From a virus: a stretch of DNA of 43,248 bases. The stretch lies in the IMG/VR virus record IMGVR_UViG_3300045988_178743. One strand, given 5' to 3'. Shown here piece by piece: positions 1 through 34,645 of the stretch. Every line of letters starts with the position of its first letter. Position 1 is the stretch's first letter. The notes below the pieces were generated by a model, which did no database searches, had not been told where the DNA came from, and worked only from the letters and a program-made list of their open reading frames with translations. The position numbers and the translations under genes are program-made.

Positions 1-45
1 CTGATTGTCGGCCTTAGAAGCGCCGAACTTACCGGTGATATTCGG
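1..45 (-). other. 5' fragment of silent fibre cassette V4 (PNITGKFGASKADNQ...), cut by the window edge
   Basis: Bases 1..55 are identical to 42722..42776, where the cassette continues to its stop at 42554. Confidence 0.85.
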
Positions 46-55
46 CGCCGAATAT
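38..55. repeat. Crossover site copy: perfect 18-bp palindrome ATATTCGGCGCCGAATAT between two head-to-head cassette starts
   Basis: Self-complementary by inspection. The same sequence occurs at 42759..42776 and 43194..43211. Confidence 0.9.
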
Positions 56-278
56 AACGGGTCAACTCAATAAATCACCTACGCCTTGGAGCGGCTTACT
101 TTATGAACAAAATGGGGCACTCAAGCCCGTTAACGTAGGTGATACAGCTTATTCCGGTCATACCAACGGTTCAAATTACCGTTTGGAATTTGATGCCTCT
201 TGTTCTAACAAAACCTACGGCAACAGTACAACCGTTCAGCCTCCATCGATTGCGCTCTTGCCGTGTATTAAGTTCTAA
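48..278 (+). other. Silent tail-fibre C-terminal cassette V6 (76 codons, PNITGQLNKSPTPW...TVQPPSIALLPCIKF-stop), no start codon
   Basis: My own translation from CCG at 48. It shares the PNITG start and the VQPP..LLPCIK end with the expressed fibre. It lies convergent with, and overlaps by 11 nt, the stop of gene 268..774. Confidence 0.85.
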
Positions 279-774
279 TGCAGGGGAGCAGGGAGATAGA
301 GGGCGGCTGAACCGTTGCCGAAGATCCGTAGATTGATGAAGTTCTGGATGCATAAAAATTGACAGCATTAGTGCTTGAAGCGCCCCCACCCGGAACATTT
401 ACATTCTGACTGACCATTGAAAACGCTCCGGATGATTCAGTAACCCACGGGGTTCCATTATGAGATCCGCTGATATTCGGTAAGCCCGCGCTTTTAAACG
501 TTCCGGCTGACCCAATTGAGGTTGTGCCCTCGACAAAACGATTCGCTAAATTTGGCAAGTTAAAAGTTGTACTTCCATCACCACTGCCATGTTTTGTACC
601 AATAACTGCGAAAAGCGCTGCGTATGTCGATCGACTCACAGCTGCACCGTTGCAGAGAAGCCAGCCATCAGGAACTGAATAGAAGTGTCCAAGCATTCCT
701 GTTGGCATGCTCAACGGCTTTAGCTTAGGGAGCAGATCATTCAATGCCTGAGAAATTTGAGTAAGAGTTGCCAT
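268..774 (-). CDS. Tail fibre distal subunit with a phage tail-collar-type domain; residues 99-168 are cassette V5 in the expression slot
   Basis: 168 aa. The motif DGWLLCNGAAVSRSTYAALFAVIGTKHGSGDGSTTFNLPNL is typical of the tail collar / MdpB-like domain. It lies last in the baseplate-fibre operon. The C-terminal 70 codons follow the CCGAATATCA junction. Confidence 0.85.
   Translation of the reverse strand: MATLTQISQALNDLLPKLKPLSMPTGMLGHFYSVPDGWLLCNGAAVSRSTYAALFAVIGTKHGSGDGSTTFNLPNLANRFVEGTTSIGSAGTFKSAGLPNISGSHNGTPWVTESSGAFSMVSQNVNVPGGGASSTNAVNFYASRTSSIYGSSATVQPPSISLLPCIRT
471..480 (-). repeat. Half crossover site inside the expressed fibre gene (sense CCGAATATCA = Pro-Asn-Ile-Ser)
   Basis: This is the same 10-mer that opens every silent cassette. 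The 480-bp terminal repeat ends exactly here. Confidence 0.8.
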
Positions 775-791
775 GCCAACCTCTTCAGATG

Positions 792-1391
792 TCAGATGTT
801 CACAGTTTCACCACCCAGCTTGGCAACAGCCTGGGTCAACTGAGTGACAATTATTTTTAAAGATTCGACTTCTTGTGCAGTTGTGCCGCCAATCGGTCGT
901 CCGCCTGGCGTAGCACCATCACCCGCATAAAGTGTCCATGTTTCTGTATTCAGTACAACTTCTCGATCTGCAGGAATTATTTGAGCCAGTTCGGCAGTCG
1001 TGTAGCCTTTAATTTGGATAGCTACACCGCCTGCCTGAAAATCGAGAGGTGTTGCGAGTTTCTTTGCTGTCACTGCTCGCTCAGCAAGATGCAGCTCTTT
1101 CACTGATCCTGCCTTGAGCGCAGCACCATCAAGAGCCCCATCTTTAGTCCATTTGAAAGACTGCAACGCCTCAAGAAACTGTGTGATGCTCGGCGGCTCG
1201 ACTTGCGTCATGCCGCATGCATCGATCACCGAGATGCGCATCTGATCTATCAAATAGAACCACGCAGCCCCTGGTTTGGTTGCGGGAGTCCCGGTTTTTG
1301 GATTGCCGGACGTTGGATAACCTTTTGAACTCAAAGTGCTTAGCGACGGCGGCGAATCGATCGCTGACGCCTGCCAATAACCTGATGTCAT
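792..1391 (-). CDS. Tail fibre proximal subunit
   Basis: 199 aa with an N-terminal GTPATKPGAAWFYLIDQM-type motif as in P2 H / Mu S-like fibre N-termini. It lies between the baseplate gp48-like gene and the collar-domain gene, and its ATGA overlaps the upstream gene. Confidence 0.7.
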   Translation of the reverse strand: MTSGYWQASAIDSPPSLSTLSSKGYPTSGNPKTGTPATKPGAAWFYLIDQMRISVIDACGMTQVEPPSITQFLEALQSFKWTKDGALDGAALKAGSVKELHLAERAVTAKKLATPLDFQAGGVAIQIKGYTTAELAQIIPADREVVLNTETWTLYAGDGATPGGRPIGGTTAQEVESLKIIVTQLTQAVAKLGGETVNI

Positions 1392-1993
1392 GCTTCTTCC
1401 TCATAGATGAAAATTACGTATACGTGTGCAGGTGCAAGCGCACGTATCATGCACTCGAGAAGTGCATTACCCCATCGGGCAAGATGCTCATCAACACCCC
1501 ACGTCACATCGAAATACTCTGCGTTTCCGTCGGACCTGATAGTGATGCCAAGAGTCATCACCGTCGTCCATTGTTCGTCCCAGAGCGCGTCGTCAACTGT
1601 GCTGTCGACTGTGTGCTCCGTGAATGTCGTCACTTTTGCCTGATAGCCGAGAGTGCCGGCGAGCGACTCGAAAAATGCAGCCGTCAATCCCAAATTTGAA
1701 GTGATCTTTGCGAGCAGTTCCTGCCGCATTTGTTCACGAGATGGATCAGCAATCGCTGCGAGACACTCTGACGGGATACCCCACTCGTCGAACCATCGTT
1801 CAAGCTCCTCTATTGAGGAGCGCGGATCAGCCTCTTCAAGTACAGCATTTGCACGCTCGTCAACTCTTGCAGCCTCTCGAGCTAAGGCATACAGAATTGC
1901 GTCAAGCATGCCGCCCTGCCGACGATGCCAGATCGGGCCCCGCGGAAGCAGAGCCTCAACTTGATGCGCATAATGTTTTTCCGTCAGTGCCAT
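1388..1993 (-). CDS. Baseplate/tail protein, Mu gp48-like (DUF2313 family)
   Basis: 201 aa. The N-terminus LLPRGPIW...LDAILYALAREAARV is characteristic of the family. Its position after the baseplate J gene also fits. Confidence 0.75.
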   Translation of the reverse strand: MALTEKHYAHQVEALLPRGPIWHRRQGGMLDAILYALAREAARVDERANAVLEEADPRSSIEELERWFDEWGIPSECLAAIADPSREQMRQELLAKITSNLGLTAAFFESLAGTLGYQAKVTTFTEHTVDSTVDDALWDEQWTTVMTLGITIRSDGNAEYFDVTWGVDEHLARWGNALLECMIRALAPAHVYVIFIYEEEA

Positions 1994-1994
1994 A

Positions 1995-3020
1995 TCACAC
2001 CCATGTGATCGTGCCAGGAACGTAGATCTCTCCTACGACCGTACTCACATCATCTGTTGGCGTCACAATGCGATAACTCTTCACCTCCGAGACGCCGCTA
2101 ATTGCTCGATCTATTGAGGTTCGCAAAACGGCGCCGCCTGGGACAGCTTCAGCAAGCACAACGCTCTCGATCGCAGACTCGATCTTGGCCTTCACGGCTT
2201 CATCGTCCGGGAGTATGTCGAGCGTGATGTCGAGCGGTTTCGGGACTGGCGCGACTACGTGCAGTATTGCCGTCACCGGCATTTGTGAAGTGATGTACTC
2301 ATCGACGCGTTTCACCATCGTCTCTGTCGGTATCCCGTTTGACGTCATGCCGTCTGTCATAAAACGCACCGTCACATGACCTTGACCGAGCTCCTGGGGA
2401 TAGCACCACGCTCGAGTGACACCTGAGACCGCAAGCGTCCAAGCAACGTAATCCGCCCTTGTCCCAGCTTTGGGCGGGCTTTTCTGGCGCAGAAGCAAGC
2501 GCTCGCGCAAGCTCTCATCGTCCTCTGCCTCCGCGCCGCCAGTAAGTTCGTCTGCAGTCGCTATGCTCATGATCCCCGCTATAGGACTGACGAGCGTAAG
2601 TTCCATGCCGGCTTCTGAATTGCCCGAGGCACCTGCCACTGTAGCTTCGATAGGAGCTTTACCATCGATGCTTGCTGCGGTAGTTACGTAGACGCTGCCA
2701 TCTTCAGCTTGAAGCTGTGTACCGACCGGCACGGTGCCAGTGCCGATGAAGGAGACTTCACCAGTCGCAGCTGAAGCTGCTTTGCGGTAGATGCCGTATT
2801 CGGACGCACGGCGCTCAAGATACGCACCTTCTGCTGTCGTCGTGAAGCACTGTCGCAACACGAAGGCGATAAATCCATGCAAACCATGCGAAACGCCTGA
2901 GATAACTCGCACTAGCACAGGTACGAGCGACCAGCGCATAGCCTTCTTTCCCATGCGGCTCTCGGCATCTGCCTGCACACGTTTAATAATCTGCGAAAGA
3001 GTTGGTCTTTCAAAAGACAT
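1995..3020 (-). CDS. Baseplate J-like protein (Mu gp47-like)
   Basis: The long ORF is trimmed to the MSFERPTLSQII start typical of Baseplate_J proteins. Synteny with the gp46- and gp48-like genes supports the call. Confidence 0.8.
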   Translation of the reverse strand: MSFERPTLSQIIKRVQADAESRMGKKAMRWSLVPVLVRVISGVSHGLHGFIAFVLRQCFTTTAEGAYLERRASEYGIYRKAASAATGEVSFIGTGTVPVGTQLQAEDGSVYVTTAASIDGKAPIEATVAGASGNSEAGMELTLVSPIAGIMSIATADELTGGAEAEDDESLRERLLLRQKSPPKAGTRADYVAWTLAVSGVTRAWCYPQELGQGHVTVRFMTDGMTSNGIPTETMVKRVDEYITSQMPVTAILHVVAPVPKPLDITLDILPDDEAVKAKIESAIESVVLAEAVPGGAVLRTSIDRAISGVSEVKSYRIVTPTDDVSTVVGEIYVPGTITWV

Positions 3021-3021
3021 G

Positions 3022-3435
3022 TCAGCTCCAAACGTTTTGGAAACGAGCGGCAAGCGCTTGCGTGTCGTCAGGCTTGAAACAAACGACTGTGAGCGTCAAT
3101 TGATCTATATCGCTACGCTCAGCAGTCACCTCGATGCGAGCGACAACGGCATCTTCAGTGAGCCATTTAAGCGCCTCTTTGGCGTAGGCCTCAGCGCGTC
3201 TGAGCATCTGCGGAAGCATCTTCTGACGCTGCAGCAACCACAGCCGCGAACCGATCCGGTCACCAGTTTCCTGAGCAAATGTGTCGCCCCACCAACCCTG
3301 GCGGTATGGCGCTACCGGACCATCATCTGCAGCCGATTTACGCCATGAAAAAAGGCTGATAAGTACAGCTTGCGCTAGCTCATCAGCCTCAAAGTCAGAA
3401 ATGTCTGCTGTCTTTCCGTTGAGAATTAGTTCCAT
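3022..3435 (-). CDS. Baseplate protein, GP46 family (Mu gp46-like)
   Basis: 137 aa from MELILNGKTADISDFE. The motifs WWGD and GSRLWLL are typical of the GP46 family. The ORF-track N-terminal extension overlaps the upstream gene and is probably not translated. Confidence 0.75.
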   Translation of the reverse strand: MELILNGKTADISDFEADELAQAVLISLFSWRKSAADDGPVAPYRQGWWGDTFAQETGDRIGSRLWLLQRQKMLPQMLRRAEAYAKEALKWLTEDAVVARIEVTAERSDIDQLTLTVVCFKPDDTQALAARFQNVWS

Positions 3436-3442
3436 AGATACC

Positions 3443-4078
3443 TTAGTTTTCAGCTCCTCCGGTTTGGCCACTGCCTGGTTGCACGCCAGAGTGTTTGTGA
3501 GTTTTGAGACCAATGCCGTCCGCTGTGACATCACCCCCCGAAACCTTGATGTCACCCGTGACAGCCGCACCGTTGCCTCCAGAGATAGCCATGCCGCCGG
3601 TGCCGGTGATAAGGTTTGCCACTTTTAGTGCGCCAGTGATTTCAACCGTTGGAGCATCGATCTTCACTGAAGCCGCTTTGAGAGTCGCAGCACCGCTCAC
3701 TGTTGCGGTCAGTGTGCCGCCGACGGTCGCCTCGAGCTGTTTGTCTGTGTGGATCACAATTCCATCGCGCGTGAGATGCACCTTCTGTCCTTGGTCGTCA
3801 TAGAGTGCAACTTCACCGGCTTTCAATTTCGTCAGCCGATAGCGCCGGTCAGCGATACAAAAAACTATGCCGTGGCTGCGATCGCCGCCGAAGAATGCTG
3901 CAAAAGCTTCCGGCTGTTCATCGTCGAGCGGCTCAGATGTAAACCCATAAGGCTCAACATGCTCAAGATCGTCGCGTACTTCATCTGCAAGCAGCCTCAC
4001 CTGCACCACGCGCATCTTTTTTGTGCCGTCCGCCGCGGATACCGTCCCGCGGGCAAGCACATCATCCAATCTGCCCAT
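3443..4078 (-). CDS. Baseplate hub/spike protein (Mu gp45 / gpV-like)
   Basis: The start MGRLDDVLARGTV...VQVRLLADE...EPYGFTSEP and the C-terminal HKHSGVQPGSG match gpV/gp45-type assembly proteins. I chose the start at 4078 to avoid overlap with 4137..4421. Confidence 0.75.
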   Translation of the reverse strand: MGRLDDVLARGTVSAADGTKKMRVVQVRLLADEVRDDLEHVEPYGFTSEPLDDEQPEAFAAFFGGDRSHGIVFCIADRRYRLTKLKAGEVALYDDQGQKVHLTRDGIVIHTDKQLEATVGGTLTATVSGAATLKAASVKIDAPTVEITGALKVANLITGTGGMAISGGNGAAVTGDIKVSGGDVTADGIGLKTHKHSGVQPGSGQTGGAEN

Positions 4079-4136
4079 AAAAAAAACGGCCACATCTCTG
4101 CGACCGTCCTCATTCGTATATTCGTATGTGACTGGT

Positions 4137-4421
4137 TCAATGCATGCGAACCCACTCACCTTTTGATGACTCGTGCCACTCTTCTTCCTGCCCGTCGCGC
4201 CCGTAGCGTTCGACAAAGACCCGATCATCTTGCACCTGTATTCGCTTGATATCTCCGTCTTTATGAGGCGTCACAATATTAGGATTCAGCTCGCTGTGAT
4301 AAACGCAGTTTCTGTCACTCAACAGACCGTACTTGTTGATGTATTTCTCACAGACAAACGCACCGGCAAAGCTCGTCTGAGCCATCGCAATTAAGCTTAA
4401 TGCCGCAACGAATCGCCTCAT
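4137..4421 (-). CDS. Small secreted protein (signal peptide) inserted in the baseplate module
   Basis: 94 aa from MRRFVAALSLIAMAQTSFA/GAF (hydrophobic core plus an AXA-like cleavage motif). Its ATGA overlaps the stop of the gp44-like gene. I recognise no structural family. Confidence 0.55.
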   Translation of the reverse strand: MRRFVAALSLIAMAQTSFAGAFVCEKYINKYGLLSDRNCVYHSELNPNIVTPHKDGDIKRIQVQDDRVFVERYGRDGQEEEWHESSKGEWVRMH

Positions 4422-5572
4422 TTCACACCTTTCCAAGCATTCTTAGTTACCACGTTACTTTGAGATGATACATCTCGCTTAAATGCCGACGGCAAACTAA
4501 CTTCCAGAGTTGTAATCATTCCGCTCGCAGAAAGCTGAAAGATAATTTTTGTCACCAACATCAAATCGCTGCGCTTCAGAATTTCGTCTTCAACACGAAT
4601 AAATTGATTAGGACGCCACAGAGTGCCGTCGCTTTGACGCCATCCTTGTATTGTGTATGACGCTTTCAAAGACACTCCACGGCGATATGCGGCTTCAAAG
4701 TTAGCTCTCGCAGCACACATCTGCCCGCCACTCTGACCAGAATCCTTCAAAACCAGAAGTCGGAAGCGGCCTACATCAGAATCTGTTGCTGTACCTTTGT
4801 CTTCCGCTGCAGATCGACCAAAGTCAGTATCAATTCCTGCGTGTTGACCAACAGCGATGTAGTGCGAATAACGCTTTGAGAAATCGAATGCCGAACTGCC
4901 AGCAAGTATGTTGACGCCCAATTCAAGCGCGTCCGCCGCTTGTCCGGCGCTCCCGGGCTCTGTGATCACGAGATTTCCTTGTTCGTCATCCATGACGACT
5001 AAGTTCTCTTTCGTAATCAAGCGGTTAATTGACTCAAATACCTTTTCGCCGGGATTTACTGTGTGATTTGTGAGCGTCTTACCTATGCCGACTTCATCTT
5101 TCACAGTTACACCGTAAGGCTTCGCTAAATCCGCAATGATTTGGGAAACGGACTGATTTTTCCATGAAGTTGCGGGATTCGTACTCGTCGTTGTTATCGC
5201 TGTGCCACTTTTGCCCTTTACACCAACCCAAGCGTTCTTCGATCCCGCTACCGCATATGCGGCTGATGGAGGACAACACTCCACCAAATCGACCGTTCTC
5301 GACTTTCCTTGTATCTGCACCTTAACAGACTTCCCGTCATACTGGATTGGTGTCGAGGAGATCCATCCGGTGCAAACCAAATCATCGCCGATGTAAACCT
5401 GCACTAAATCTCCGTTTCGAAAAAAACCGAAGTCGGTACTGCCCGGGAATTTCTCTGTCACCTCCAGAGCGAACGCGCGAGATAGCTGCTCGATGCCCGT
5501 TTCGATTCTTACAGATTTCCAACCACCAAAGCGGCGGCGGCCAATACGAACCTCAACTCTGTTGTCAGTCAT
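4418..5572 (-). CDS. Baseplate/tail protein, Mu gp44 (P) / late control D-like
   Basis: 384 aa. Called from size and position between the DNA-circulation and gp45-like genes, plus ATGA coupling. Confidence 0.7.
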   Translation of the reverse strand: MTDNRVEVRIGRRRFGGWKSVRIETGIEQLSRAFALEVTEKFPGSTDFGFFRNGDLVQVYIGDDLVCTGWISSTPIQYDGKSVKVQIQGKSRTVDLVECCPPSAAYAVAGSKNAWVGVKGKSGTAITTTSTNPATSWKNQSVSQIIADLAKPYGVTVKDEVGIGKTLTNHTVNPGEKVFESINRLITKENLVVMDDEQGNLVITEPGSAGQAADALELGVNILAGSSAFDFSKRYSHYIAVGQHAGIDTDFGRSAAEDKGTATDSDVGRFRLLVLKDSGQSGGQMCAARANFEAAYRRGVSLKASYTIQGWRQSDGTLWRPNQFIRVEDEILKRSDLMLVTKIIFQLSASGMITTLEVSLPSAFKRDVSSQSNVVTKNAWKGVK

Positions 5573-6855
5573 TCACTCAAAATCCTTAACGGAGACGCTG
5601 GACAGAAGCCTTCATGACGAACCCCATTCCGGAGTGCTATTTCCGAATCGCGAGTTGCATCATCGTGATAATCGTAGGCAAGCACCACAGCAGGAACAAC
5701 ATCCGTTGGCGTCACAGTGATTAAGCGCTGCTGCAAATCTGCACGTGATGTAAGTACCTCAAAGACTGCGACGCGGGCATCTTCGATCTTTTTGTACATC
5801 TCATCGTTGGTCTCGAGCAGAAGCTCCGTATCGAGCGCCTCTGTGAGCACCGTACGAGTTTCAATGAGTTCATCGTAGCTCCTGACATGAACTGTCATTT
5901 CGGAAAGATCGTCCCGAGTCGTGAGCGTCGTGCCTGGCGCCGAAGAGTCTTTGTCAGAGCCCACGAGAGCGCTCACGCCGACCATCTGCGCGATAAGAAG
6001 CTGACGCGTCAGCGTTTCTACCGCCGCACGATTCTTCATCACAGTCTTCTGCACATCCGAGAGTGTCGTCCCTTCCTCAACGACCTTTCTGTAAGCTTTA
6101 GTGCCAGACGAAAGTTTGTCGTGCCCAACCAAATTTTCGAGCTGCTTCGCCACACTGCGCCACGCAGAAACAGTTGTTGCCCACCGCGAAAGTCCTAGCG
6201 CACCGGCGAGCTTCGTCGCGAAGATCTTCGGATCAGTTGAAAGCAGTGACATGGCCTTCGACGCAGTCTCAGCTACTCCCTCAGCAAAATCGAAGATTTT
6301 GGAGAGTTCCGAGTTACTAATGATCCCTAGGCAGTCGAGAATGTCGCCCTGGAGCGCAGAGTCGATGTACTCGTTGATCGTCTTAAGATCGATCGACGTC
6401 ACAAACCGATCAATAGCCGACTCTTCGACAGCATCTGCAACATCGAATGCTTCACTCTCAGCGTCCACCGAAATCGTCGGAAATTCGAGAATGCCGGCCT
6501 CTGTCGCGGTGATCACCACCGACGCAACTCCGAGTGCCGCATCAAATTTGAGCTCTGAGATAGAGGTAATCGTCACCTCCATCTCGCCCAGCCAAGGGTG
6601 TATGAGCGTGCCAGACCCAGGAGCCTCCAGCTCTGCCATTAAGGATTGAGCCTGAGCGATATAGTCATCACCAATAACGAACGCAGTGAGAGTGATCTGT
6701 CGCGTCGCTCGCCCTAAATCTTCAACAAATGGCTGATCCTTTTGAGGATATTCGTGGACCACCGTACGGCGCCCAATTTTCAAACCTGACGCAGTCACCT
6801 CAAAGGGTATACCTCTAAAGCTTGCCGGCTGAAGCTGATCAGAGAACTTACTCAT
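5569..6855 (-). CDS. DNA circulation protein (Mu gp43-like)
   Basis: 428 aa. The N-terminus ASFRGIPFEV...GRRTVVHEYPQKDQPFVEDLGR is the signature of the Mu DNA-circulation N-terminal domain. Confidence 0.8.
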   Translation of the reverse strand: MSKFSDQLQPASFRGIPFEVTASGLKIGRRTVVHEYPQKDQPFVEDLGRATRQITLTAFVIGDDYIAQAQSLMAELEAPGSGTLIHPWLGEMEVTITSISELKFDAALGVASVVITATEAGILEFPTISVDAESEAFDVADAVEESAIDRFVTSIDLKTINEYIDSALQGDILDCLGIISNSELSKIFDFAEGVAETASKAMSLLSTDPKIFATKLAGALGLSRWATTVSAWRSVAKQLENLVGHDKLSSGTKAYRKVVEEGTTLSDVQKTVMKNRAAVETLTRQLLIAQMVGVSALVGSDKDSSAPGTTLTTRDDLSEMTVHVRSYDELIETRTVLTEALDTELLLETNDEMYKKIEDARVAVFEVLTSRADLQQRLITVTPTDVVPAVVLAYDYHDDATRDSEIALRNGVRHEGFCPASPLRILSE

Positions 6856-6863
6856 CCAAAACC

Positions 6864-8630
6864 TCAGTATGAGTAACGGTCGGCATAACCGACGGAGCCA
6901 AGAATGTCGAGGCCGCCACTGCCTTGAGCGTCAGTGATCGCCGCCGATGCGCCGCCGGTCGCAGTTACGTCGACCGCGACGCGGCCACTCACATGCTGCG
7001 ATGCAGTTAAGTTCACTGGCTCGACCCGCTGCACGGTTGCGGACTGTGTGCTGCCCGATGTTTTCGAGTCGCTCGAGAACCAGTTCTTCACGAAATCAGG
7101 CACGAGGGAAGCGAAGTCGAAGTTTGCGAAGAAGTCACGGATGATTCGACCAACATTTTGTACGCTTTTCTTGACACTCTCATACCAACCAGTACAAGCC
7201 TTCGCCCACGAATCTGGAAGCAAGTTGAACACGCTCTTGATGACATCATCAATACTGCGGAGCACCGCTGGAAAATCTCCGCGGAAAACTGCTTTAGCCG
7301 TTGAAAGTATCGAAGAACCTACTGCCCCAAATCTCTCGGTGAGACGATCCCATGCTGCGGCGACAAAATCGACACAGGCCTGAGCACCTTCCTTGATTGC
7401 TGGCCAGATGCGATCCCAGTTCGCGATCACAAGCCCCGCAGCAATTGCAACGGCGCTGATCACGAAGCCGACGGGTCCGAGTGCACCTGCCATAGCGACC
7501 CCGACTGTGCGGGCGATAGTCGCAAGCGTGCTGAATGTCTGAATCATCGTCATCACACTCGAGCCGAGAGCGACGACAGCCATAATCGTCTTTCCTGCCA
7601 TAATCGCGCCCATCGTGTACAAGACTGTATTGAACCCACCTACAGCATTGAAGGCACGAATCGCGTAATCCGCAAAAGCCAGGATCCCACTCACGATTCC
7701 TTCGAAATCAATACTCTCAAGCGATTGCGCGAAGCGCTCAGCAACTTGGGCGAACTTCTCAGAGAAAGCCTCCCGATTTGCGACGATCATGGTCTGGATA
7801 CGCCCAGTCATGCGTGTGATTGTCGGCGCTAATGATGAAGCTATTGTGTTGCCCACTGAAGTCACAACAAGGTGTAAGTTTGTGAACCCCGTGCTCAGAT
7901 CAGAAGCTGATTTCACCGCATCCCGACTCATTACGATGCCAAGTCGATGAGCTTCGGCACTCATATCGTCGAGCCCTGCAGCTCCAGCAGTCAGCATCGG
8001 TAAGAGCTTACGACCGCCCTCACCGAAGACGGCCATTGCCATCGAGGCTCGCAACGTCGGATCCTCGTTTCTCTGTATTGCGTCAGCAAAGTCACGGAAA
8101 ACGTCTTCAACCGAGCGCATGTTTCCGGCAGCATCTTTCATCTTGATGCCAAGAGCGTCGAAAAGCGTTGCCGCTTTCGATGTCGTGTCCATCCCCGTTG
8201 CGATTTCAGTCATGTGCTTGCCGAAATCCTTGAGCGCATCTTCAAGCGTTTCCTGAGAAGCGCCAGCCTGCACAGCCGCGTAGCCCCACTCTTGCAGGCG
8301 TTCGACACCCACTCCGACGCGCTGACTCATCTTGTCGAGCCCATCGCCAGTTGCTGTGAAACTCGATACCGCCTGTTGCATACTGAAGCCGACAGATCCA
8401 GCTGCCGCGGCAAGAGGACCGCCAACAATACTGCCGAGGTTTTTTGCGTTCTCGGCAACGTCCATCACAGACCGATTGAAGAGTCTTAACTGCTTCTGGA
8501 GACCCGTGAATTTCGTCGACTGAACGACCTTGGCAAGTCCAACCCATCGGGCGGAGAACGCTTTGACCACTGGCGATGCAACGTCTCTGATCGCAAGAAC
8601 GGCAGTCAATCTAAAGTCTTTACCCGCCAT
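6864..8630 (-). CDS. Tail tape measure protein
   Basis: About 588 aa from MAGKDFRLTAVL, Ala/Gly-rich with hydrophobic C-terminal segments. It follows the chaperone and its frameshift region. Confidence 0.85.
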   Translation of the reverse strand: MAGKDFRLTAVLAIRDVASPVVKAFSARWVGLAKVVQSTKFTGLQKQLRLFNRSVMDVAENAKNLGSIVGGPLAAAAGSVGFSMQQAVSSFTATGDGLDKMSQRVGVGVERLQEWGYAAVQAGASQETLEDALKDFGKHMTEIATGMDTTSKAATLFDALGIKMKDAAGNMRSVEDVFRDFADAIQRNEDPTLRASMAMAVFGEGGRKLLPMLTAGAAGLDDMSAEAHRLGIVMSRDAVKSASDLSTGFTNLHLVVTSVGNTIASSLAPTITRMTGRIQTMIVANREAFSEKFAQVAERFAQSLESIDFEGIVSGILAFADYAIRAFNAVGGFNTVLYTMGAIMAGKTIMAVVALGSSVMTMIQTFSTLATIARTVGVAMAGALGPVGFVISAVAIAAGLVIANWDRIWPAIKEGAQACVDFVAAAWDRLTERFGAVGSSILSTAKAVFRGDFPAVLRSIDDVIKSVFNLLPDSWAKACTGWYESVKKSVQNVGRIIRDFFANFDFASLVPDFVKNWFSSDSKTSGSTQSATVQRVEPVNLTASQHVSGRVAVDVTATGGASAAITDAQGSGGLDILGSVGYADRYSY

Positions 8631-8787
8631 CTGTTCTCTCCATTGCGATGCGATTCCATTGAGCCACGTAAAGATCTTGTTCCGAAAAGGACATCTGCAT
8701 AGTCTTCGAAGGAGCGAGCCTCCACACATACGCGAGATCAAAGCATCGCGCCAGGATGTCTTCTACTCGGCCCCTTCCCCGAAAAAA
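8620..8787 (-). CDS. -1 frame extension of the tail chaperone (frameshifted long form)
   Basis: The slippery TTTTTTC lies at 8781..8787 (minus sense). The -1 frame stays open to 8620 and ends overlapping the tape-measure start. Confidence 0.6.
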   Translation of the reverse strand, partial: FFRGRGRVEDILARCFDLAYVWRLAPSKTMQMSFSEQDLYVAQWNRIAMERTDGG

Positions 8788-9035
8788 CCCATCACCATCC
8801 AACACAGCACATTGAAGTCTTTGAGTGCGAGTGTTTCAATTACCGAAGGCGGCAGCCCTGCGAGTTTTGAAATGTAAGCTGCGCACACAGCAGTGTTGAG
8901 ATGAGGCATGCCGTCAAGATCTACTGTGTATGGCATACCAAGCTGTTTGCACATCTTTGTAGTCGGCTCCTTCAGATCGAGCTCGCTAATCTTCTCGCCA
9001 GCGTGTTCGATCGGATGCTTCAATTCGTACTTCAT
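8763..9035 (-). CDS. Tail assembly chaperone (gpE/gpG-like short form)
   Basis: 90 aa between the tube and tape-measure genes. It ends just after a T_TTT_TTC slippery heptamer. Confidence 0.7.
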   Translation of the reverse strand: MKYELKHPIEHAGEKISELDLKEPTTKMCKQLGMPYTVDLDGMPHLNTAVCAAYISKLAGLPPSVIETLALKDFNVLCWMVMGFFGEGAE

Positions 9036-9391
9036 GCCAAATCTCCATCCAGCCCTTCAAACCGAAGGCTGATCGTTCCGTCTACAGGCTTAAAGGCTGC
9101 ATCACCTACAAGCCACGCATCACTAAGTGTGTAAACCATACCGTTTGCGCATTCAGCAGTGATCGTCATGGATTCACTTTCCATGAGCGTTTCAGTAGGA
9201 AAGTCAGAAGTCACAATGAAGTCGCCTGCGATATAGGGCGTAGCGATCGTCTCCTTGAAGCCAACTGGGCCACCCGTCGAAGCCATCGTCTCACGAGTAA
9301 CTTTTGCCATTGGGAACTCTAGGTTCCCCTGCAGTTCGAGCTGCTGACCGTCCACTTTGAAATAGCAAGTACCTGCTAGTCGCTTACCCAT
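9032..9391 (-). CDS. Tail tube protein (Mu gpM-like)
   Basis: 119 aa, directly downstream of the sheath gene. Confidence 0.75.
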   Translation of the reverse strand: MGKRLAGTCYFKVDGQQLELQGNLEFPMAKVTRETMASTGGPVGFKETIATPYIAGDFIVTSDFPTETLMESESMTITAECANGMVYTLSDAWLVGDAAFKPVDGTISLRFEGLDGDLA

Positions 9392-9394
9392 TTG

Positions 9395-10888
9395 TTATTC
9401 CTCCGCGTACTGAAGACGGAACTGGTTGAGAAGTGCGAAAACACGCAGCTGATTTACATAGTCTGGCGGGAACAGCACATCGAGACGATTTGGATTGTCC
9501 GCATTGCGTTCGACGATGAGGTACTTCTTGAAAAGGTCCCTGTTCTCACAAATGCCTGAGGTCTCTAGACGTGCATATTCAGCTACGAGTTCGCCGCGGA
9601 TCACAGACGGTGTAACTATTGCCTGACCAGCGCCGTAGCGAGTACCGTCGCTCGCGAGCTTATGGCGCGCGTACTTCGACGTGATGATTGATTTGAGTCG
9701 GCGCAGCACGTAGGCAGACGTATGCAGCGTCTCGGAGTCGAGGTAGGACGCATCGGCGTCCCCCATAGAGTTCCTCTGATACGTCGTGATCGCCCTTTCG
9801 ATCTGCACCGTGCCGCTCACAGTCGTGAGCGTGGCGATGCCGTTCTCCAACAGTGTCTGGCGCTCCGTGAGAATGAACCGATTCTGCGTCGGCGAGGCCA
9901 TGACGCCGGTAAGAGCTCCAGTCTGCGTCGGACGGGCCGGATCGGCCGAGATGAAGACAGCAGTGCGCGCGACGTAGGCCGCGAGCACCTCTTCAACCGC
10001 AGTTGGCATCGAAGGCTCGACGCCGACGATCGTCATGTGCTGGTCGTTGCGAGCCGCGCCGAAGGTCTTGAGCTCTTCGAGCGTACCGCGCTTCGCGGTA
10101 TACACGTGACCGTAGATTTGGCGGAAAGGAGACCAACGGCCCGATGTGTCGTTCATCTCTGTCTTGAACGCATCGAGCACGACGGCGTCCGAGTAGGGAC
10201 AACCGATGAAATCGTACTGCTCGTCGCCCATAGCTTCGATTGCCTGATCAATCTCAGGATCAACCGTTCCGCCAGACATTGGCGTGATTGTCACGCTGAT
10301 ACCGGAAGGTGTCGCCTCGCCATTGATGAGACCACGAAGGTTGAGTGCAAGCTGAATGCCATTTCCGATCGTACCCTTCGTTCGTGCTGCAATCGTGCAG
10401 ATTCCGTCAGCGGCACCTGCCGTAACCGGCAGATCCTTTGAAAGAGAGATTGAGTCTGATAGTGCAATCGCGATTTGAGCACCCGTATCACCTTCTTTCA
10501 CGGCCACCAGCAGGCGTTCGCCTCCAATGTAGAAGGAGAGCGTACCGGCCTCGAGGGCGGTTCCTGTAATCTCGACCTTGCCTGCTGCCGCCCCTGCAGA
10601 CTGACCATCGGCTAATGGGATACACACGAGCTGACCGAAGCTGTCGACGGTACGATAGGCATCTACCATACGTGCGAGCATCGAACCGCGACCGAAGAGT
10701 TTCTTCGCCATCGCTACAGTCGAAACTGTCACCGGCACGCCCTCTTCGGCCGTTCCCGACTCAAGCTTCTGACCAATCAATAAACTCTGAGAAGTATTAG
10801 TCGGCGTGTAAGCCGCAGAATTATCCATCTCAGCATAAAAAAGCGGCACTCGAATGCCGCTCGGAATGGTATTGAAAGAAATACTCAT
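9395..10888 (-). CDS. Contractile tail sheath protein (Mu gpL-like)
   Basis: 497 aa. Called from size and position upstream of the tube gene. Confidence 0.8.
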   Translation of the reverse strand: MSISFNTIPSGIRVPLFYAEMDNSAAYTPTNTSQSLLIGQKLESGTAEEGVPVTVSTVAMAKKLFGRGSMLARMVDAYRTVDSFGQLVCIPLADGQSAGAAAGKVEITGTALEAGTLSFYIGGERLLVAVKEGDTGAQIAIALSDSISLSKDLPVTAGAADGICTIAARTKGTIGNGIQLALNLRGLINGEATPSGISVTITPMSGGTVDPEIDQAIEAMGDEQYDFIGCPYSDAVVLDAFKTEMNDTSGRWSPFRQIYGHVYTAKRGTLEELKTFGAARNDQHMTIVGVEPSMPTAVEEVLAAYVARTAVFISADPARPTQTGALTGVMASPTQNRFILTERQTLLENGIATLTTVSGTVQIERAITTYQRNSMGDADASYLDSETLHTSAYVLRRLKSIITSKYARHKLASDGTRYGAGQAIVTPSVIRGELVAEYARLETSGICENRDLFKKYLIVERNADNPNRLDVLFPPDYVNQLRVFALLNQFRLQYAEE

Positions 10889-19960: not shown

Positions 19961-20238
19961 GAATCCCCCCGAAACTTTCTTCCGTAGTAATCGAGTGCTT
20001 TGAGGCGTTGTTTCTTGACTTCATCTGGCGCCTCGTCGAAGTTCTTGCATTGCCTCGGCGAATCAATGCGCTGCAGCACATTCCAGTCACCCTTTTTGAT
20101 ACGAAGCGAGCAATAGCCTGACTTTTTTGCTAACAGGAAGCCTCCTTGGTCATAAGCCGCTCCAGCAAAGTGAACGCAGCTGAGACACACAACCGGACAC
20201 GTGCCATAGACCTTTAGAGCAGAAAAGAGATCTGTCAT
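19957..20238 (-). CDS. Hypothetical Cys-rich protein
   Basis: 93 aa from MTDLFSALKV. It has ATGA overlaps on both sides. Confidence 0.45.
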   Translation of the reverse strand: MTDLFSALKVYGTCPVVCLSCVHFAGAAYDQGGFLLAKKSGYCSLRIKKGDWNVLQRIDSPRQCKNFDEAPDEVKKQRLKALDYYGRKFRGDS

Positions 20239-21062
20239 TTGGTCCTCAATCGGAAGTCTTCCCAGTCGAACGCAAAGCACTGCCCACCATCAGATAGACG
20301 ACTGATGGCGGCATCTCCAAGAACTGTTCGAAGTGAAGCATTCTGAATATCCTTGCCGACGAGAGGCAGATTTGAGATTGCAATGGTTGGTCGGCACTGC
20401 TTGTAGCGACCGTCGATGATTTCGAAAAGTCGGTCAGCCCCGTGGGAAGAAATGGGGCTGCGACCTATCTCATCGATCACAAGCACATCCAGATCAATGT
20501 AGGCACGGATGAGTTTTGCAGCTTCACCTTTCGCACGTCCGGCATCATCTTTGCCGTACGTCTCATAAATCTCAGAGAGCAACAGGCTACAGTCGACGAT
20601 CTTTGCGACGAAGCCTTTGCGGAGTGCGCCCATAACAATTGCTGTGCCTAGATGTGTTTTGCCAGTGCCAGTCTTACCGACAAAAATGAGCGATTTTCCG
20701 CGGTTAACACTTGTCTCAATGTCTTCCCCCCAGGCTAGAACTGCGCTCTTGACCTCTTCCATCTTGGTGTTGAAGGTCTGCCAGGAAGTCACAGTCATGC
20801 CTTGGAATCGCGGAGGGATTTCAAGTGATAAGTGCTGCGCGAGAAATCTTTGCCGAGAGCACTCTGGACAAGACGAAAAATGGAACGTGCAGGAGTCGTC
20901 GACCCAATACGAACGATACCTACCATGCCGAGAGCACTCATCCCACCGCACCTCGAACCGGGAGTCCGTAGTTGTAGTCGATTTCTGCTGTGTTTCTTGC
21001 GCCGAAGCCCGCATAGCCCTGGCGCGAGCGATCAGATCGGTGATTCCCTGCATAGTGTTCAA
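20235..21062 (-). CDS. DnaC/IstB-like AAA+ helicase loader
   Basis: Walker A GKTGTGKTHL and Walker B VLVIDEIG. The start is uncertain (21062, 21053 or 21014). Confidence 0.8.
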   Translation of the reverse strand: MNTMQGITDLIARARAMRASAQETQQKSTTTTDSRFEVRWDECSRHGRYRSYWVDDSCTFHFSSCPECSRQRFLAQHLSLEIPPRFQGMTVTSWQTFNTKMEEVKSAVLAWGEDIETSVNRGKSLIFVGKTGTGKTHLGTAIVMGALRKGFVAKIVDCSLLLSEIYETYGKDDAGRAKGEAAKLIRAYIDLDVLVIDEIGRSPISSHGADRLFEIIDGRYKQCRPTIAISNLPLVGKDIQNASLRTVLGDAAISRLSDGGQCFAFDWEDFRLRTK

Positions 21063-22011
21063 ATCCTTTCTTTTCTCTGCCGATCCAGCCGAGGAATTGA
21101 GTCTTCCACTGCCGCATGGTCTTGGTTGTTGTGTTGTTTGCGCCTAGCCAGCAACGCATCTTGGTGAAAGTTGCTTGAGCATCAATCTCAGGCCTGAGCT
21201 TCTGAGCGTCGACCCGCCAGTCATCCGGAATGTCTTCTGGAAATCGCACGCGAGGAATTCGCTCTTTGCGCGGTTGCTTCGGTTTAGAACAGGCCTCAGA
21301 TTTGCGTTTTGCGGCGTTCTGATCCTTGGTTGGCGTATCGGTACCAAAAAGCGAATCGGATGTCGTAGCGAAAAGCGCATCGATGTTCTCGATGGGTGTT
21401 TGACCGATAGCCGAGCAAACGACCTCTACGTTCACCTCACTTCCGAGACTTTCGGATGCAACTCGTGCTGCCTCGTTGAAAAGTTCGTCATCAAACGGAG
21501 GGGCTTCGCATGTGTGTGCGTCACTACTCTTTTCTTCTTCTCTATTCAGTTCTCTATTCCTTCTCTCTTCGGGGTTCACTTCTGAACCCGGTCCCGGTTC
21601 ACTTCTGAACCCGGTGGGGGTGCACTTCTGAACCCCCTCCCCGTTCACTTCTGAACCCGGTTCACTTTTGAACCCGGTGCACTTCTGAACCGGGGTCAAT
21701 TCCTTACCGGGTTCAGTTCTGAAAGTGGCAATCTTTGACGGCGGTAAAAGATTTAGATGAACTCGGTAATAGCGCTTCTCTCCGTTCTCCTGACGAAAGC
21801 TCAAAAGGCCCCTGTTCACGAGCTCCTTCAATGCAGCACGAACAACATTGCGCGACTTTCTAGCAATGGTCATGATCGACGTAATCGCCGGATAGCACTC
21901 AGAAGTCAGATCTCGATCGTCTACGAAGACCGCAACCGCTTCCAAAACGTCGGTCAACGTTCCATCTTCGAGGCCGCTTACGCGGACGGAAAAAGAAGCT
22001 TTCCAACCCAT
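20938..22011 (-). CDS. Replication initiator (O-like) with N-terminal winged-helix domain; contains the origin iterons
   Basis: 357 aa. The HTH-like segment is SIMTIARKSRNVVRAALKELVNRGLL. The internal peptide repeats GFKSEPGSEVN/GFRSEPGPGSEVN reflect DNA iterons. Confidence 0.7.
   Translation of the reverse strand: MGWKASFSVRVSGLEDGTLTDVLEAVAVFVDDRDLTSECYPAITSIMTIARKSRNVVRAALKELVNRGLLSFRQENGEKRYYRVHLNLLPPSKIATFRTEPGKELTPVQKCTGFKSEPGSEVNGEGVQKCTPTGFRSEPGPGSEVNPEERRNRELNREEEKSSDAHTCEAPPFDDELFNEAARVASESLGSEVNVEVVCSAIGQTPIENIDALFATTSDSLFGTDTPTKDQNAAKRKSEACSKPKQPRKERIPRVRFPEDIPDDWRVDAQKLRPEIDAQATFTKMRCWLGANNTTTKTMRQWKTQFLGWIGREKKGFEHYAGNHRSDRSRQGYAGFGARNTAEIDYNYGLPVRGAVG
21574..21725. repeat. Origin-type iterons: seven copies of GT(T/G)CA(C/G)TT(C/T)TGAAC
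   Basis: Copies start at 21574, 21597, 21620, 21643, 21660, 21677 and 21711, giving spacings of 23, 23, 23, 17, 17 and 34 bp. Each has GTTCA/TGAAC dyad symmetry. Confidence 0.8.
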
Positions 22012-26992: not shown

Positions 26993-28886
26993 CCCAAACT
27001 CCCGGGGATGCACCTAGTCCCGGAACACTCGCGGTGGCAAGGGCAAACCTAACAGGGTAAAGAGATCTCGGATTTTCTTCGGGATCTCTTTTGTTTTCCA
27101 AGCGTTGCGATCAGTTGGTTTATTGGCCTTCAGATAACGCAGCTGCATAAAGGCCTTCGTCAAAGAATTGCTGGGCAAACGGTTCGTTGCCGTTTCGTTG
27201 CGCCGACATGCCATACGCATCATCAGGCGCAGTGACTGGGCCAATACCTGGACAAACAGCTTGCCCATGTAGGTGCTTGAGGTCGCGTAGAGACGATCTC
27301 CAGCAGTTTGATTCTTAAACTGCTGGAAGCTCTGTTCGACAATGTTGCGGGCCCGATAAATGCTCAGAGCGATAAAAGGATCCTGGACGACGTTCGTGCG
27401 GATCACAAAGTTGCCCATGTAGCGGCACGCATCTGCCACTGCCGCGGCATTGCGCATCCAGTGCTGAGGCTCCTTTTTGACCAGGTACCGATGCATTTCT
27501 CTGAGCTGCTCCGAATCCACTTTTTTCCCTTGGTTGAGACGGTCAATCGTTTCATCGAGATTCTTTAGAAAGACTCGTTTCTGCTCGGCCCGCAGACACC
27601 CGTCCTGATACAAATGCAGTGTGTTGTGAATGTGCTGGCGTCCGGCTGCACCGTCTTCCTGCCACATTTCTGTCGTGGTGTACGCCGCCACTTCTAAGCG
27701 GCCATCGGTAAAAGCAGGATCGTCAAGGGAAACGCGGTGCTGATCAAAGAGCCGCCGAACAGAGTCTTCAGCTCGAGTTACACCTTGGACGAATTTCAGT
27801 TCCAGGTTGATGAGTTTTTGCATGTTCATCAAGCTGTGATAACCGCGATCCGTCACCAGCACGGTGTTGGAGAGATCAAATTGATGGTCGATCATGCGCT
27901 GCACAATAGCCAGATAGAGCTGCTTATCGTTAGTCGAGCCTTCGCTTTCGTAGGCATAGCAGACATCTCCCGTCTCGTAATCCACCCCTAAAGACAGATT
28001 CACTTGCCGCAGATGAGGATCCTGTCGGGCATGGCCATAGGCAGCCGAGGCGATGGTCTCTGAGTAAGTGCTGATGCTGGTGGAATCCAAAGCCAAAAAC
28101 TGCGGGATATCGGCAGCTGAGACCTTTTGTCGTGCTTTTAGCAGACGGTCGTGTCGACGTTTGAAGTACCGGTCCATCAGGCTCTGATCAACCACCGCGA
28201 GCTGCTCACTAATGCGCTGGCTCGATAAAGGCTGGGCTTGCGGCAGCCAGACCAAAGCCAGCCAATCCGCGTAATTCATCATGCCGCTGTCTTCCCCGCA
28301 GAGGCGATAGATGGCAAAGCGAAGCAGTTCCGTACCCGTATCTTCGCCAAAAGTCTCCTGTAAGTCCTCGAGCAAGCCATGGTCCACAGCGAATTGCCAG
28401 GCTGCCCAAGTCAACCCCAGTTCGACATCTTCCCCGCGCCAAGACGGCTGCGGTTCGTTGTCCGTATCCGGCTGCTCGAACGGCTCTTGTTCAATGAGCT
28501 GATTATTGTCGTAAAGCCAAAACTTGCCGGCGTATTCCGGGTTATTCGTGAGGAATTTGCGCCCGAGATGGACCTGCCCAGTTTGCGGATCCAAACGCCC
28601 GACATGGCATCGTTTCTCAATGCGTGACTGTTTCTTTTCCGGATCCCAGCGATTGCGATAGCCGTAGACATAGGTACGCCCATCGGCATCCGTGTACGTA
28701 GAGAAAGACCAAGGTTTTGGCGAAGATGGCATGATGTTGTCTATATTAAATAACTATAGACTATGATAAAGATAAAGCAAAGGCTTGTCAAGTTTTTATT
28801 AAATAAAAACAATGGATTAGGAAGAATAAATAGGCCGACTTTGCGTCAGATCAGGACCTCCCGGAGCTAGTCTCCGGGAGTTTGGG
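26993..28886 (-). mobile_element. Intact IS4-superfamily (IS1634-like) insertion sequence, 1894 bp
   Basis: Terminal inverted repeats are CCCAAACTCCCGG (26993..27005) and CCGGGAGTTTGGG (28874..28886), extending imperfectly inward. A 6-bp direct target duplication TTCTTA lies at 26987..26992 and 28887..28892. Confidence 0.85.
27014..28732 (-). CDS. DDE transposase, IS4 superfamily
   Basis: 572 aa with LALDSTS, VTDRGYHS and YRARNIVEQSFQQFK, the last matching the Y-2-R-3-E-6-K signature. Confidence 0.85.
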   Translation of the reverse strand: MPSSPKPWSFSTYTDADGRTYVYGYRNRWDPEKKQSRIEKRCHVGRLDPQTGQVHLGRKFLTNNPEYAGKFWLYDNNQLIEQEPFEQPDTDNEPQPSWRGEDVELGLTWAAWQFAVDHGLLEDLQETFGEDTGTELLRFAIYRLCGEDSGMMNYADWLALVWLPQAQPLSSQRISEQLAVVDQSLMDRYFKRRHDRLLKARQKVSAADIPQFLALDSTSISTYSETIASAAYGHARQDPHLRQVNLSLGVDYETGDVCYAYESEGSTNDKQLYLAIVQRMIDHQFDLSNTVLVTDRGYHSLMNMQKLINLELKFVQGVTRAEDSVRRLFDQHRVSLDDPAFTDGRLEVAAYTTTEMWQEDGAAGRQHIHNTLHLYQDGCLRAEQKRVFLKNLDETIDRLNQGKKVDSEQLREMHRYLVKKEPQHWMRNAAAVADACRYMGNFVIRTNVVQDPFIALSIYRARNIVEQSFQQFKNQTAGDRLYATSSTYMGKLFVQVLAQSLRLMMRMACRRNETATNRLPSNSLTKAFMQLRYLKANKPTDRNAWKTKEIPKKIRDLFTLLGLPLPPRVFRD

Positions 28887-31057: not shown

Positions 31058-31300
31058 ATGATCTTCAGTGAACTCACCATCGACGAGCTGAGAGACAAAG
31101 CGAATTGGTGTCGTTCGTACCTGCCTTTCGCGGATATCGAGAAGTGTAAAGAAAAGGCAAAAGAGATGATCGACGAGGGTGAGAACCTTCAAAACATCAT
31201 CTCCTACCTCGCATTAATCGAAAAACAAATCAAAAAGCTCGAAGATGAGGGCACTGAAAGCTCATCTTGCTGCTACGAACAAAAGGAGATCACAAAATGA
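31058..31300 (+). CDS. Hypothetical acidic protein
   Basis: 80-aa ORF overlapping the AlpA-like start via ATGA. Confidence 0.45.
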   Translation: MIFSELTIDELRDKANWCRSYLPFADIEKCKEKAKEMIDEGENLQNIISYLALIEKQIKKLEDEGTESSSCCYEQKEITK

Positions 31301-34426: not shown

Positions 34427-34497
34427 GCTCCCAAAAAATCCGAGTGATATTTCCATTTTATGCTCCCACGTGTTTTTATGGGAGCTTAAATGGGAGC
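34427..34497. repeat. Int-proximal arm-type repeats (TGGGAGC, four copies)
   Basis: GCTCCCA at 34427 and 34462 (inverted) and TGGGAGC at 34479 and 34491 (direct). Confidence 0.6.
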
Positions 34498-34633: not shown

Positions 34634-34645
34634 CTTTTGTTGATC

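Follow-up and report, generated by a model that had tools for sequence, protein, structure and literature searches.

The IMG/VR virus record IMGVR_UViG_3300045988_178743, a stretch of 43,248 nucleotides (nt) that was analysed as a whole and is called the window here, ends in a perfect inverted copy of its own beginning, and this repeat lies on a row of small tail-fibre cassettes. Does the repeat mark the ends of a linear genome with inverted terminal repeats (ITRs), or did it arise in another way? Our results indicate that the 480-bp repeat is an assembly artefact, produced by a real and active DNA-inversion system (a shufflon) of a circular temperate phage; we put the probability of this explanation at roughly 0.93. 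The true genome is a circle of 42,721 bp, represented by window 1-42721, and positions 42722-43248 should be trimmed.

Geometry of the window ends

Bases 1-480 are the exact reverse complement of 42769-43248 (480 nt, 100% identity), and the match breaks off sharply at base 481. In addition, bases 1-55 recur in direct orientation at 42722-42776, over exactly 55 nt with 100% identity and with a period of 42,721. The repeats lie in a cassette array, in which six cassettes (V1-V6) form three invertible segments bounded by an 8-bp core, ATATTCGG. The inner boundary of the inverted repeat (base 480) and the end of the direct repeat (base 55) each coincide with the last base of a core. The directly repeated 55-mer, called K here (1-55, plus strand), consists of the 5' end of V4 (37 nt), a core, a CG spacer and an inverted core. 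Its second copy (42722-42776, plus strand), found by repeat comparison, closes the circle.

The left arm of the apparent ITR (1-480) is genuine single-copy sequence, which comprises the start of V4, the core pair, segment 3 and the core at the junction with the constant part of the fibre gene. The right arm (42769-43248) lies outside the 42,721-bp genome; we read it as an artefactual second pass over segment 3, in the opposite orientation, that leaves through the reverse complement of K. The window contains both a V4|V5 junction (1-110) and a V4|V6 junction (42722-42830), and in its tail segment 3 has a CG spacer and a V4 start on either side. The genome has a single V4 and a single CG spacer, the remaining spacer being T. 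A sequence-only reading of this DNA had described a perfect 480-bp terminal inverted repeat, a direct repeat of bases 1-55, and an inverted block made up of the V6/V5 pair, a crossover site and 37 bp of V4. The repeat comparison confirms both repeats to the base, and the mapping of cores and cassettes gives the block this same composition.

An isolate prophage and more than ten contigs carry the two ends of the window as one continuous sequence. The isolate is Sutterella wadsworthensis DSM 14016 (locus L010, NZ_QNRV01000004.1, a contig of 161,677 nt), where window 34604-41943, six cassettes and window 466-8821 follow each other in this order at 96-98.6% identity. The same succession of recombinase gene, two, four or six cassettes, and constant fibre part occurs in loci L002, L003, L005, L006, L020, L021, L022, L026, L027 and L028.

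A walk through two isomers

The geometry was compared with de Bruijn graphs built from two isomers, where isomer A is the 42,721-bp unit and isomer B is the same unit with 56-472 inverted. Every (k+1)-mer of the window was found in the k=55 graph of the two isomers. Four nodes on isomer A branch at this k, namely 1-55, 48-102, 426-480 and 473-527. When branching of the k-mers at the window ends was compared for k values of 31, 33, 55 and 77, the first and last 55-mers of the window branched at k=55 and not at the other three values; only at k=55 does K have a single incoming edge and a pair of outgoing ones. The 527-nt tail beyond the circle is a composite: its first 480 nt (42722-43201) match isomer B, its last 480 nt (42769-43248) match the reverse complement of isomer A, and the whole tail is contained in neither. 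For context, the default k values of metaSPAdes go up to 55, and its circular genomes show a terminal overlap of length k.

Because of this graph test, the contig can be read as one continuous path: from K over the A-junction and segment 3 around the circle back to K, then over the B-junction, the reverse complement of segment 3 and the reverse complement of the A-junction to the reverse complement of K. The sampled population would have contained at least two isomers, with segment 3 both ways round, which in a k=55 graph would share all nodes except for four short junction paths. The assembler would have started at the branching 55-mer K, crossed segment 3 and rounded the circle back to K. 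At this second encounter it would have taken the alternative branch, the V4|V6 junction, and passed through segment 3 on the opposite strand. The walk would then have left via the reverse complement of its own starting edge and halted at the reverse complement of K. Such a walk is expected to leave a direct repeat of 55 nt and, at the contig ends, a perfect inverted repeat of 480 nt.

The sequence-only reading had anticipated much of this. It proposed a circular unit of about 42,721 bp, and the junction from 42721 to 1 indeed runs on uninterrupted in the isolate contig and in independent metagenome contigs. It further suggested that the assembler had passed through the opposite orientation of the V5/V6 segment, which agrees with the finding that the window is a valid k=55 walk over two isomers. 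Population heterogeneity at the shufflon, its third proposal, is borne out by the presence of both V4|V5 and V4|V6 junctions in the window of a genome that has one V4.

Cassette array and crossover site

The core ATATTCGG occurs ten times in the window, against 0.81 copies expected by chance, and none of 100 shuffled sequences reached ten. All ten copies are located at cassette starts. Six of them belong to the non-redundant unit, at 41927 (-), 42340 (+), 42349 (-), 38 (+), 48 (-) and 473 (+), and inversely oriented copies of this one site bound three segments. Including its flanking cores, segment 1 spans 41927-42347, with V1 (41927-42142, plus strand) and V2 (42132-42347, minus strand), and segment 2 spans 42349-42766, with V3 (42349-42564, plus strand) and V4 (42554-42766, minus strand). 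In unit coordinates, V4 occupies 42554-42721 plus 1-45 on the minus strand, so that its 5' end corresponds to 1-37. Segment 3 (48-480) holds V5 (48-278, plus strand), a silent cassette of 76 amino acids (aa) that converges on V6 (268-480, minus strand). L002 and L025 have a cassette homologous to V5 joined to their constant region. The border between segments 2 and 3 consists of back-to-back cores, ATATTCGG-CG-CCGAATAT (38-55, with cores at 38-45 and 48-55), and the core at 473-480 (plus strand) marks the junction between cassette and constant region, which is also the inner boundary of the inverted repeat.

Each of the six cassettes is an open frame from core to stop codon, encodes 70-76 aa, starts with PNI(T/S)G and ends with VQPP..LPCI(K/R)x. 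V6 continues in frame from the constant part, and together they form the expressed tail-fibre gene of 168 aa (268-774, minus strand), in which the constant N-terminal part (481-774) is fused to V6 at the core. This constant part contains a Collar domain (PF07484, E=8e-22), and the fibre resembles solved long and short tail fibres in the PDB. Upstream of it on the minus strand come a gene whose product has an Mtd_N domain and, beyond it, a baseplate and tail module of the Mu-like type (gp48, Baseplate J, gp46, gp45, gp44/P, DNA_circ_N, tape measure, tube and sheath). A constant 5' part, alternative 3' cassettes that can be switched onto it and a recombinase gene at the far end together give the layout of a shufflon. 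Functionally, the locus is a tyrosine-recombinase shufflon, with three segments that carry six C-terminal cassettes of about 70 aa for a Collar-domain fibre. Flips of one or several segments would join any of the six C-termini to the constant fibre part, and such an exchange presumably changes receptor specificity. We infer that the cassettes alter host range.

Alignment of 42 distinct sites from the window and its relatives gave the consensus CCnGT(G/T)ATATTCGG. The conserved site is 14 nt long, with eight invariant positions, encodes PNI(T/S)G and is conserved on the cassette side only. Between neighbouring cores there are 1-5 nt of spacer (T, CG, GC, ACAGA or GCTGT). Cassettes keep their own flank while spacers stay put, which indicates that exchange takes place within the 8-bp core or at its edge. 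In two relatives (L011, 7095-7467, and L019, 6015-6387), about 373 nt of unrelated sequence separates two segments, versus the usual spacer of 1-5 nt.

Evidence for inversion across relatives

Near-identical relatives differ by rearrangement of these segments. For instance, L023 and L025 carry the same segment of cassette families B and N at 99.7% identity but inverted, next to constant regions that are 99.6% identical. L002 and L012 share the I/J segment and the constant region, each at 100% identity, and the segment occupies a different position in the array. The 25 loci that were compared contain 23 cassette families, eight of which occur in both orientations (A, B, C, D, F, G, H and L), and ten different families are fused to the constant region. 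Across contigs, the tail fibre thus draws on at least 23 cassette families.

A second assembly shows a comparable terminal structure. Contig L001, from another metagenome, repeats its own recombinase-side flank at its end as a perfect inverted copy of 65 nt that stops at the core, and it thus holds both a flank|G and a flank|H junction; 65 nt corresponds to no standard k. The segment in L024 is 100% identical to that of L001, but there the constant region follows it. BLAST had given the impression that the inverted copy in L001 was imperfect, which direct comparison over the 65 nt ruled out. Isomers therefore coexist in the window junctions and the L001 junctions, and are also represented by the pairs L023/L025 and L002/L012.

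Six contigs from different assemblies end 0-7 nt past a core. Three of them are Logan contigs whose recombinase is identical to that of the window and which are broken 0-3 nt past the first core. Contigs break at cores even though the 14-nt site is far shorter than any assembler k, which points to real branching in the reads.

Segment partners also vary by lineage: A is paired with E or F, and B with D, N, C or W. Inversion at the cores cannot by itself re-pair cassettes, and homologous recombination in the conserved 3' ends of the cassettes would therefore also reshuffle the arrays on an evolutionary time scale. The conserved 3' stretch is a likely substrate for such recombination between lineages. 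The two cassettes of a convergent pair overlap by 11 nt at their stop codons (268-278, 42132-42142 and 42554-42564). In each pair, as around the stop codons of V5 and V6 (255-290), both strands encode VQPP..LPCIK, and every segment centre is thus an imperfect palindrome. The centre of a segment in L033 (6850-7012) has 81-nt palindrome arms with 70% identity.

A different arrangement was observed at positions 1-1674 of L018 (OGRA01011127.1, 4120 nt). Here a gene for a 340-aa Collar-domain fibre with its own constant region reads into a four-cassette array, and the far end of this array carries a 31-nt start of the window-type constant region, facing the opposite way, with no recombinase gene between. 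L018 may represent two convergent fibre genes that share one cassette pool; alternatively, it is a shufflon-induced chimera of two phage types that have cassette O in common.

Prophage context and host

The host is Sutterella wadsworthensis, a gut bacterium. The phage itself, a temperate Sutterella myovirus, has a circular replicative form of 42,721 bp and integrates at the tRNA-Pro(GGG) gene. A second tyrosine-type recombinase gene, Int448 (33068-34414, minus strand, 448 aa), is distinct from the shufflon recombinase. Exactly this protein is encoded directly next to the host genes thrS-infC-rpmI-rplT-pheS-pheT-ihfA-tRNA-Pro(GGG) in four long contigs (L029-L032), where the 99.9% identity to the window starts within the tRNA gene, at its last 20 nt. 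The attP core (34646-34665, minus strand) is identical to these last 20 nt. The opposite edge of the prophage, as seen in L010, lies at about window 34604. Int448 is taken to be the integrase because it is located at the end of the prophage, beside attP. Pfam detected its arm-binding domain alone, since the catalytic domain has diverged too far to be recognised by PF00589 at E<=0.01. With ARAGORN, neither the window nor the L010 edge yielded a tRNA; tRNA-Pro is present at the Int448-side junction only.

An intact attP in the window means that the sequence comes from a circle that was excised or replicating. The exact 448-aa sequence of Int448 occurs in 2,614 blocks of the index of the contig collection, which implies that this prophage family is very common in human gut metagenomes.

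Two doublets of ATGGGAGC lie on either side of the attP core, at 34478-34497 and 34710-34729, with a 12-nt spacing inside each. The motif occurs nowhere else on the plus strand, and the doublets are candidates for arm-type sites to which the Arm-DNA-bind_3 domain of Int448 would bind.

Alternative explanations

A linear genome with true 480-bp ITRs, of the protein-primed type known from phi29 and PRD1 or with hairpin telomeres like those of N15, would display just what ITR detectors look for, a perfect terminal inverted repeat. The supposed ends are, however, internal and contiguous in the isolate prophage and in many contigs, and the genome encodes an integrase with its attP, iterons and terminase genes. 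For the Pfam scans, open reading frames (ORFs) were joined with GS linkers into pseudo-proteins, and matches to Serglycin are artefacts of these linkers. No protein-primed family-B polymerase, terminal protein or protelomerase was found by Pfam in the sizeable ORFs, including every ORF of at least 350 aa. The sequence-only reading had named a protein-primed or telomere-resolving replication system as the finding that would speak against it, and with this outcome its interpretation stands. True ITRs also leave the additional 55-nt direct repeat unexplained; the boundaries of the inverted repeat fall exactly on recombination cores and its start lies exactly 55 nt from the branch point. We consider a linear genome of this kind to be practically out of the question.

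A second origin of the inverted junction could be a head-to-head dimer. Tyrosine recombinases can act between molecules, and many genome copies coexist during replication. By reasoning, a crossover that joins the V5-side core of one copy to the V6-side core of a second copy would fuse the two circles and reproduces the observed junction order, V4-CG-rc(seg3)-CG-rc(V4), where rc denotes the reverse complement and seg3 segment 3. Yet only a graph walk predicts that the contig stops exactly at the reverse complement of K, 55 nt from the branch, and dimers would be a minority species with inverted packaging sites. Entry and exit by the same flank were moreover seen in the unrelated assembly L001, while in L024 the same segment leads to the constant region. 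The chance that a dimer underlies the window is very slight. Much the same holds for the idea that the array is a static set of paralogues, rearranged slowly or mixed from co-occurring strains that together gave rise to the artefact, to which we assign a small chance. The lineage-specific pairing of segments, which goes beyond site-specific inversion, fits this idea. Against it, the two junction types in the window differ by a precise, core-bounded inversion only, with zero other differences over 480 nt; apart from the rearrangement, the members of the pairs L023/L025 and L002/L012 match at 99.6-100% identity; every array has a dedicated recombinase conserved beside it, with candidate catalytic residues; and the breaks 0-7 nt past cores in contigs from many samples require true branching of reads.

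Several points nevertheless weigh against an assembly artefact caused by active inversion. A rare head-to-head dimer would yield the same local sequence. The value k=55 and the identity of the assembler are deduced from the repeat geometry and from the metaSPAdes default. No contig was found with exactly the six cassette alleles of this window in an otherwise permuted order, and the three contigs with an identical recombinase break after the first core and so give no permutation; the near-isogenic inversion pairs come from sister phages. Finally, the role of the recombinase beside the array, Int389, is deduced from a single feature of the sequences, its conserved adjacency, and Int448 or a host factor may catalyse inversion in its place.

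The recombinase Int389

Int389 is a tyrosine recombinase of 389 aa (40678-41847, plus strand), the stop codon of which lies 80 nt from the first core. It adjoins the array in all relatives, always at this distance of 80 nt. Given this conserved adjacency of a site-specific recombinase, Int389 is probably the shufflon invertase. It would recombine inversely oriented cores and thereby flip the segments between them. The protein has the three domains Arm-DNA-bind_3 (E=3e-16), Phage_int_M and Phage_integrase, which places it among the P4/CP4-57 integrases. It shares about 30% identity with CP4-57 IntA-like phage integrases, and its arm domain matches solved arm domains of CP4-like integrases. String matching of motifs gave R224, H312-x-x-R315, H338 and Y348 as candidate catalytic residues. 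The sole NCBIfam match was to a generic integrase-domain model, below the cut-off.

Homologues occur in L034 (78% identity) and in L033 (64%, with a different baseplate type), where they are likewise convergent with Collar-domain fibre genes. The segments in these two loci measure about 400 nt and are flanked by inverted cores, CCGAACATCAC. Int389 and its homologues (62-100% identical, from Sutterella and from gut-metagenome contigs) may well constitute a clade of complete P4-type integrases, with their arm-binding domain, that were recruited as dedicated invertases for Collar-domain tail-fibre shufflons, beside a separate integrase; we lean towards this view. To our knowledge, Rci, FimB/E and Tsr have no arm domains. 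If our view is true, this recombinase architecture is unreported among the invertases compared here, and prompts one to ask to which target the arm domain binds during inversion.

We also considered that Int389 is the phage integrase, with an attP beside the cassettes. This was ruled out by the prophage edges, which lie at 34604-34665 next to Int448, while Int389 is located about 6 kb inside the prophage.

A hairpin with an 11-bp stem (CTAGCCCTGCG ... CGCAGGGCTAG) lies between the stop codon of Int389 and the first core (41873-41909). It is kept in all relatives, and the end of contig L001 coincides with its outer edge. The hairpin could be a terminator that insulates Int389 from the silent cassettes, or an accessory site of the recombinase.

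Upstream of Int389, on the opposite strand, the region 37023-40699 (minus strand) includes a gene for a DUF4376 protein (39917-40699). The gene at this position in L034 carries a Phage_tail_APC domain (tail assembly chaperone), and Int389 may hence sit between two tail-fibre-related modules. The 368-aa and 246-aa proteins encoded in 37023-40699 gave no family match.

Comparison with known inversion systems

The shufflon of R64 and other IncI plasmids (Rci, sfx, pilV) is a multiple inversion system driven by a tyrosine recombinase, in which a constant N-terminal part receives exchangeable adhesin tips at its C-terminus. Its recombinase gene borders the array, conservation of the sites is one-sided, and recombination is known only between inverse sites. 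It serves the adhesin of a conjugative pilus on a plasmid, and Rci is not known to have an arm-type domain. The sfx sites are unrelated in sequence to the ATATTCGG site. A tblastn search with Int389 against 72,556 plasmids matched 474 records; among the best 40 of these 474 there was no rci annotation, and the annotated matches were arm-type or site-specific integrases and unnamed proteins. The arm domain and these plasmid annotations indirectly place Int389 outside the Rci clade.

Phage tyrosine-recombinase shufflons that act on receptor-binding proteins (RBPs) have already been published. The mechanism described here is not new; the invertase with an arm domain is potentially novel. The closest case is Rin, which is encoded by prophages of Bifidobacterium and was presented as the first tyrosine invertase of a phage (PMC6109161), and whose shufflon shows inversions between prophage and virion genomes (Mavrich et al. 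2018, PMC6109161). Like the Int389 locus, it has the recombinase at one end of the array and the constant N-terminal part at the other, a short asymmetric site at each cassette start, and a separate canonical integrase elsewhere in the prophage (PMC6109161). In contrast, Rin is XerD-like and lacks an arm-type domain, whereas Int389 has the full P4/CP4-57 architecture, as far as published descriptions can be compared (PMC6109161); with three domains including an arm-binding one, Int389 does not belong to the two-domain, XerD-like Rin type. The sites differ as well, with rix reading TTCCCTAACCC (PMC6109161) and the site found here CCnGT(G/T)ATATTCGG. Furthermore, Rin targets a lactococcal-type RBP of a siphovirus in an actinobacterial host (PMC6109161), while the present system targets a Collar-domain fibre of a myovirus with a Mu-like tail in a betaproteobacterium.

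Exchange of tail-fibre C-termini by inversion, which alters host range, is also known from Gin, Cin, Pin and Min (of Mu, P1, e14 and p15B) and from the FRphi gin shufflon (PMC13418256). These classical analogues resemble our locus in this exchange, and Min and FRphi have several segments, but they rely on serine invertases with an enhancer and Fis. No serine recombinase of the resolvase/invertase family was matched in any ORF scanned, which sets the locus apart from the serine-invertase systems. The authors of the FRphi study noted that shufflon heterogeneity confounds assemblies (PMC13418256), in line with our results.

A BV01-like phage of Phocaeicola has a shufflon with six isoforms, and all configurations were found in reads (PMC13596623). 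It is likewise a temperate gut phage, in which the recombinase flanks a multi-cassette region of about 1.7 kb that overlaps the 3' end of the fibre gene (PMC13596623). It differs by its Bacteroidota host and its 10-bp motif, TGGGAGAACT, versus Sutterella and ATATTCGG here, and by having three cassettes in which inversion shifts the position of the stop codon, versus six discrete convergent cassettes here (PMC13596623). Our literature search yielded no paper that pairs Sutterella with a shufflon.

Implications for ITR-based completeness calls

By a rule of the CheckV type, viral catalogues take inverted contig ends of at least 20-21 nt as a sign of a putatively complete ITR genome (PMC12807716, PMC9610469). 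A gut-phage survey regarded this with suspicion: viral operational taxonomic units (vOTUs) with ITRs were more widespread than expected, and 87 vOTUs had both members with direct terminal repeats (DTRs) and members with ITRs (PMC9610469). The accessible sections of these papers state no mechanism (PMC12807716, PMC9610469), whereas our case offers an explicit one, an invertible segment that is crossed twice in a de Bruijn graph. A literature search found no paper that explicitly blames invertible segments for false ITRs. The window is thus a worked example of how an invertible segment can earn a circular temperate phage the false label of a complete, linear ITR genome.

Our results suggest a simple screen for such cases. 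It would look for an internal direct copy of the contig start, at the distance of the true unit and with a length equal to the assembler k, and for inverted-repeat boundaries that fall on a short motif recurring at cassette starts. The value of this locus lies in this lesson for quality control and in a new, well-populated example of a phage tail-fibre shufflon. The locus also bears on the prediction of host range and on measuring, from reads, how phages vary in phase in gut metagenomes.

Other features of the phage genome

A megablast search with window 1-25000 against 50,697 phage records gave no match. Among the remaining phage genes are a cI-like S24 repressor, an IstB/DnaC-like loader, and HNH, TerS and TerL, a trio typical of cos packaging; terS and the HNH gene lie at about 17.8-18.5 kb. 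A cluster of iterons at 21548-21723 consists of GGTTCACTTCTGAACCC repeats at 17- and 23-nt spacing. It lies inside an ORF of 357 aa (20938-22011, minus strand) with a weak winged-helix match, adjoining the IstB/DnaC-like gene (20235-21062). This cluster looks like an origin of the lambda O type, with iterons inside the initiator gene, and it would fit replication as a circle, of the theta or sigma type.

The early region of the window carries an insertion sequence (IS) with a 572-aa DDE_Tnp_1 transposase (27014-28732, minus strand). A different IS is present in L029 and L031, the prophages of which are 99.9% identical to the window, at about window 31962-31967 (locus positions 8583-10184), and L032 has no IS there. 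These differences among near-identical prophages indicate that IS content is polymorphic. Host pst/phoU genes come after the IS in L031, a sign that this prophage may be truncated. Two copies of a 71-nt repeat with 73% identity lie nearby (31417-31487 and 32049-32119), the first within an AlpA/HTH_17-like gene (31267-31557); the vicinity of Int448 may therefore hold a paralogous pair of genes that resemble those of excisionases or regulators.

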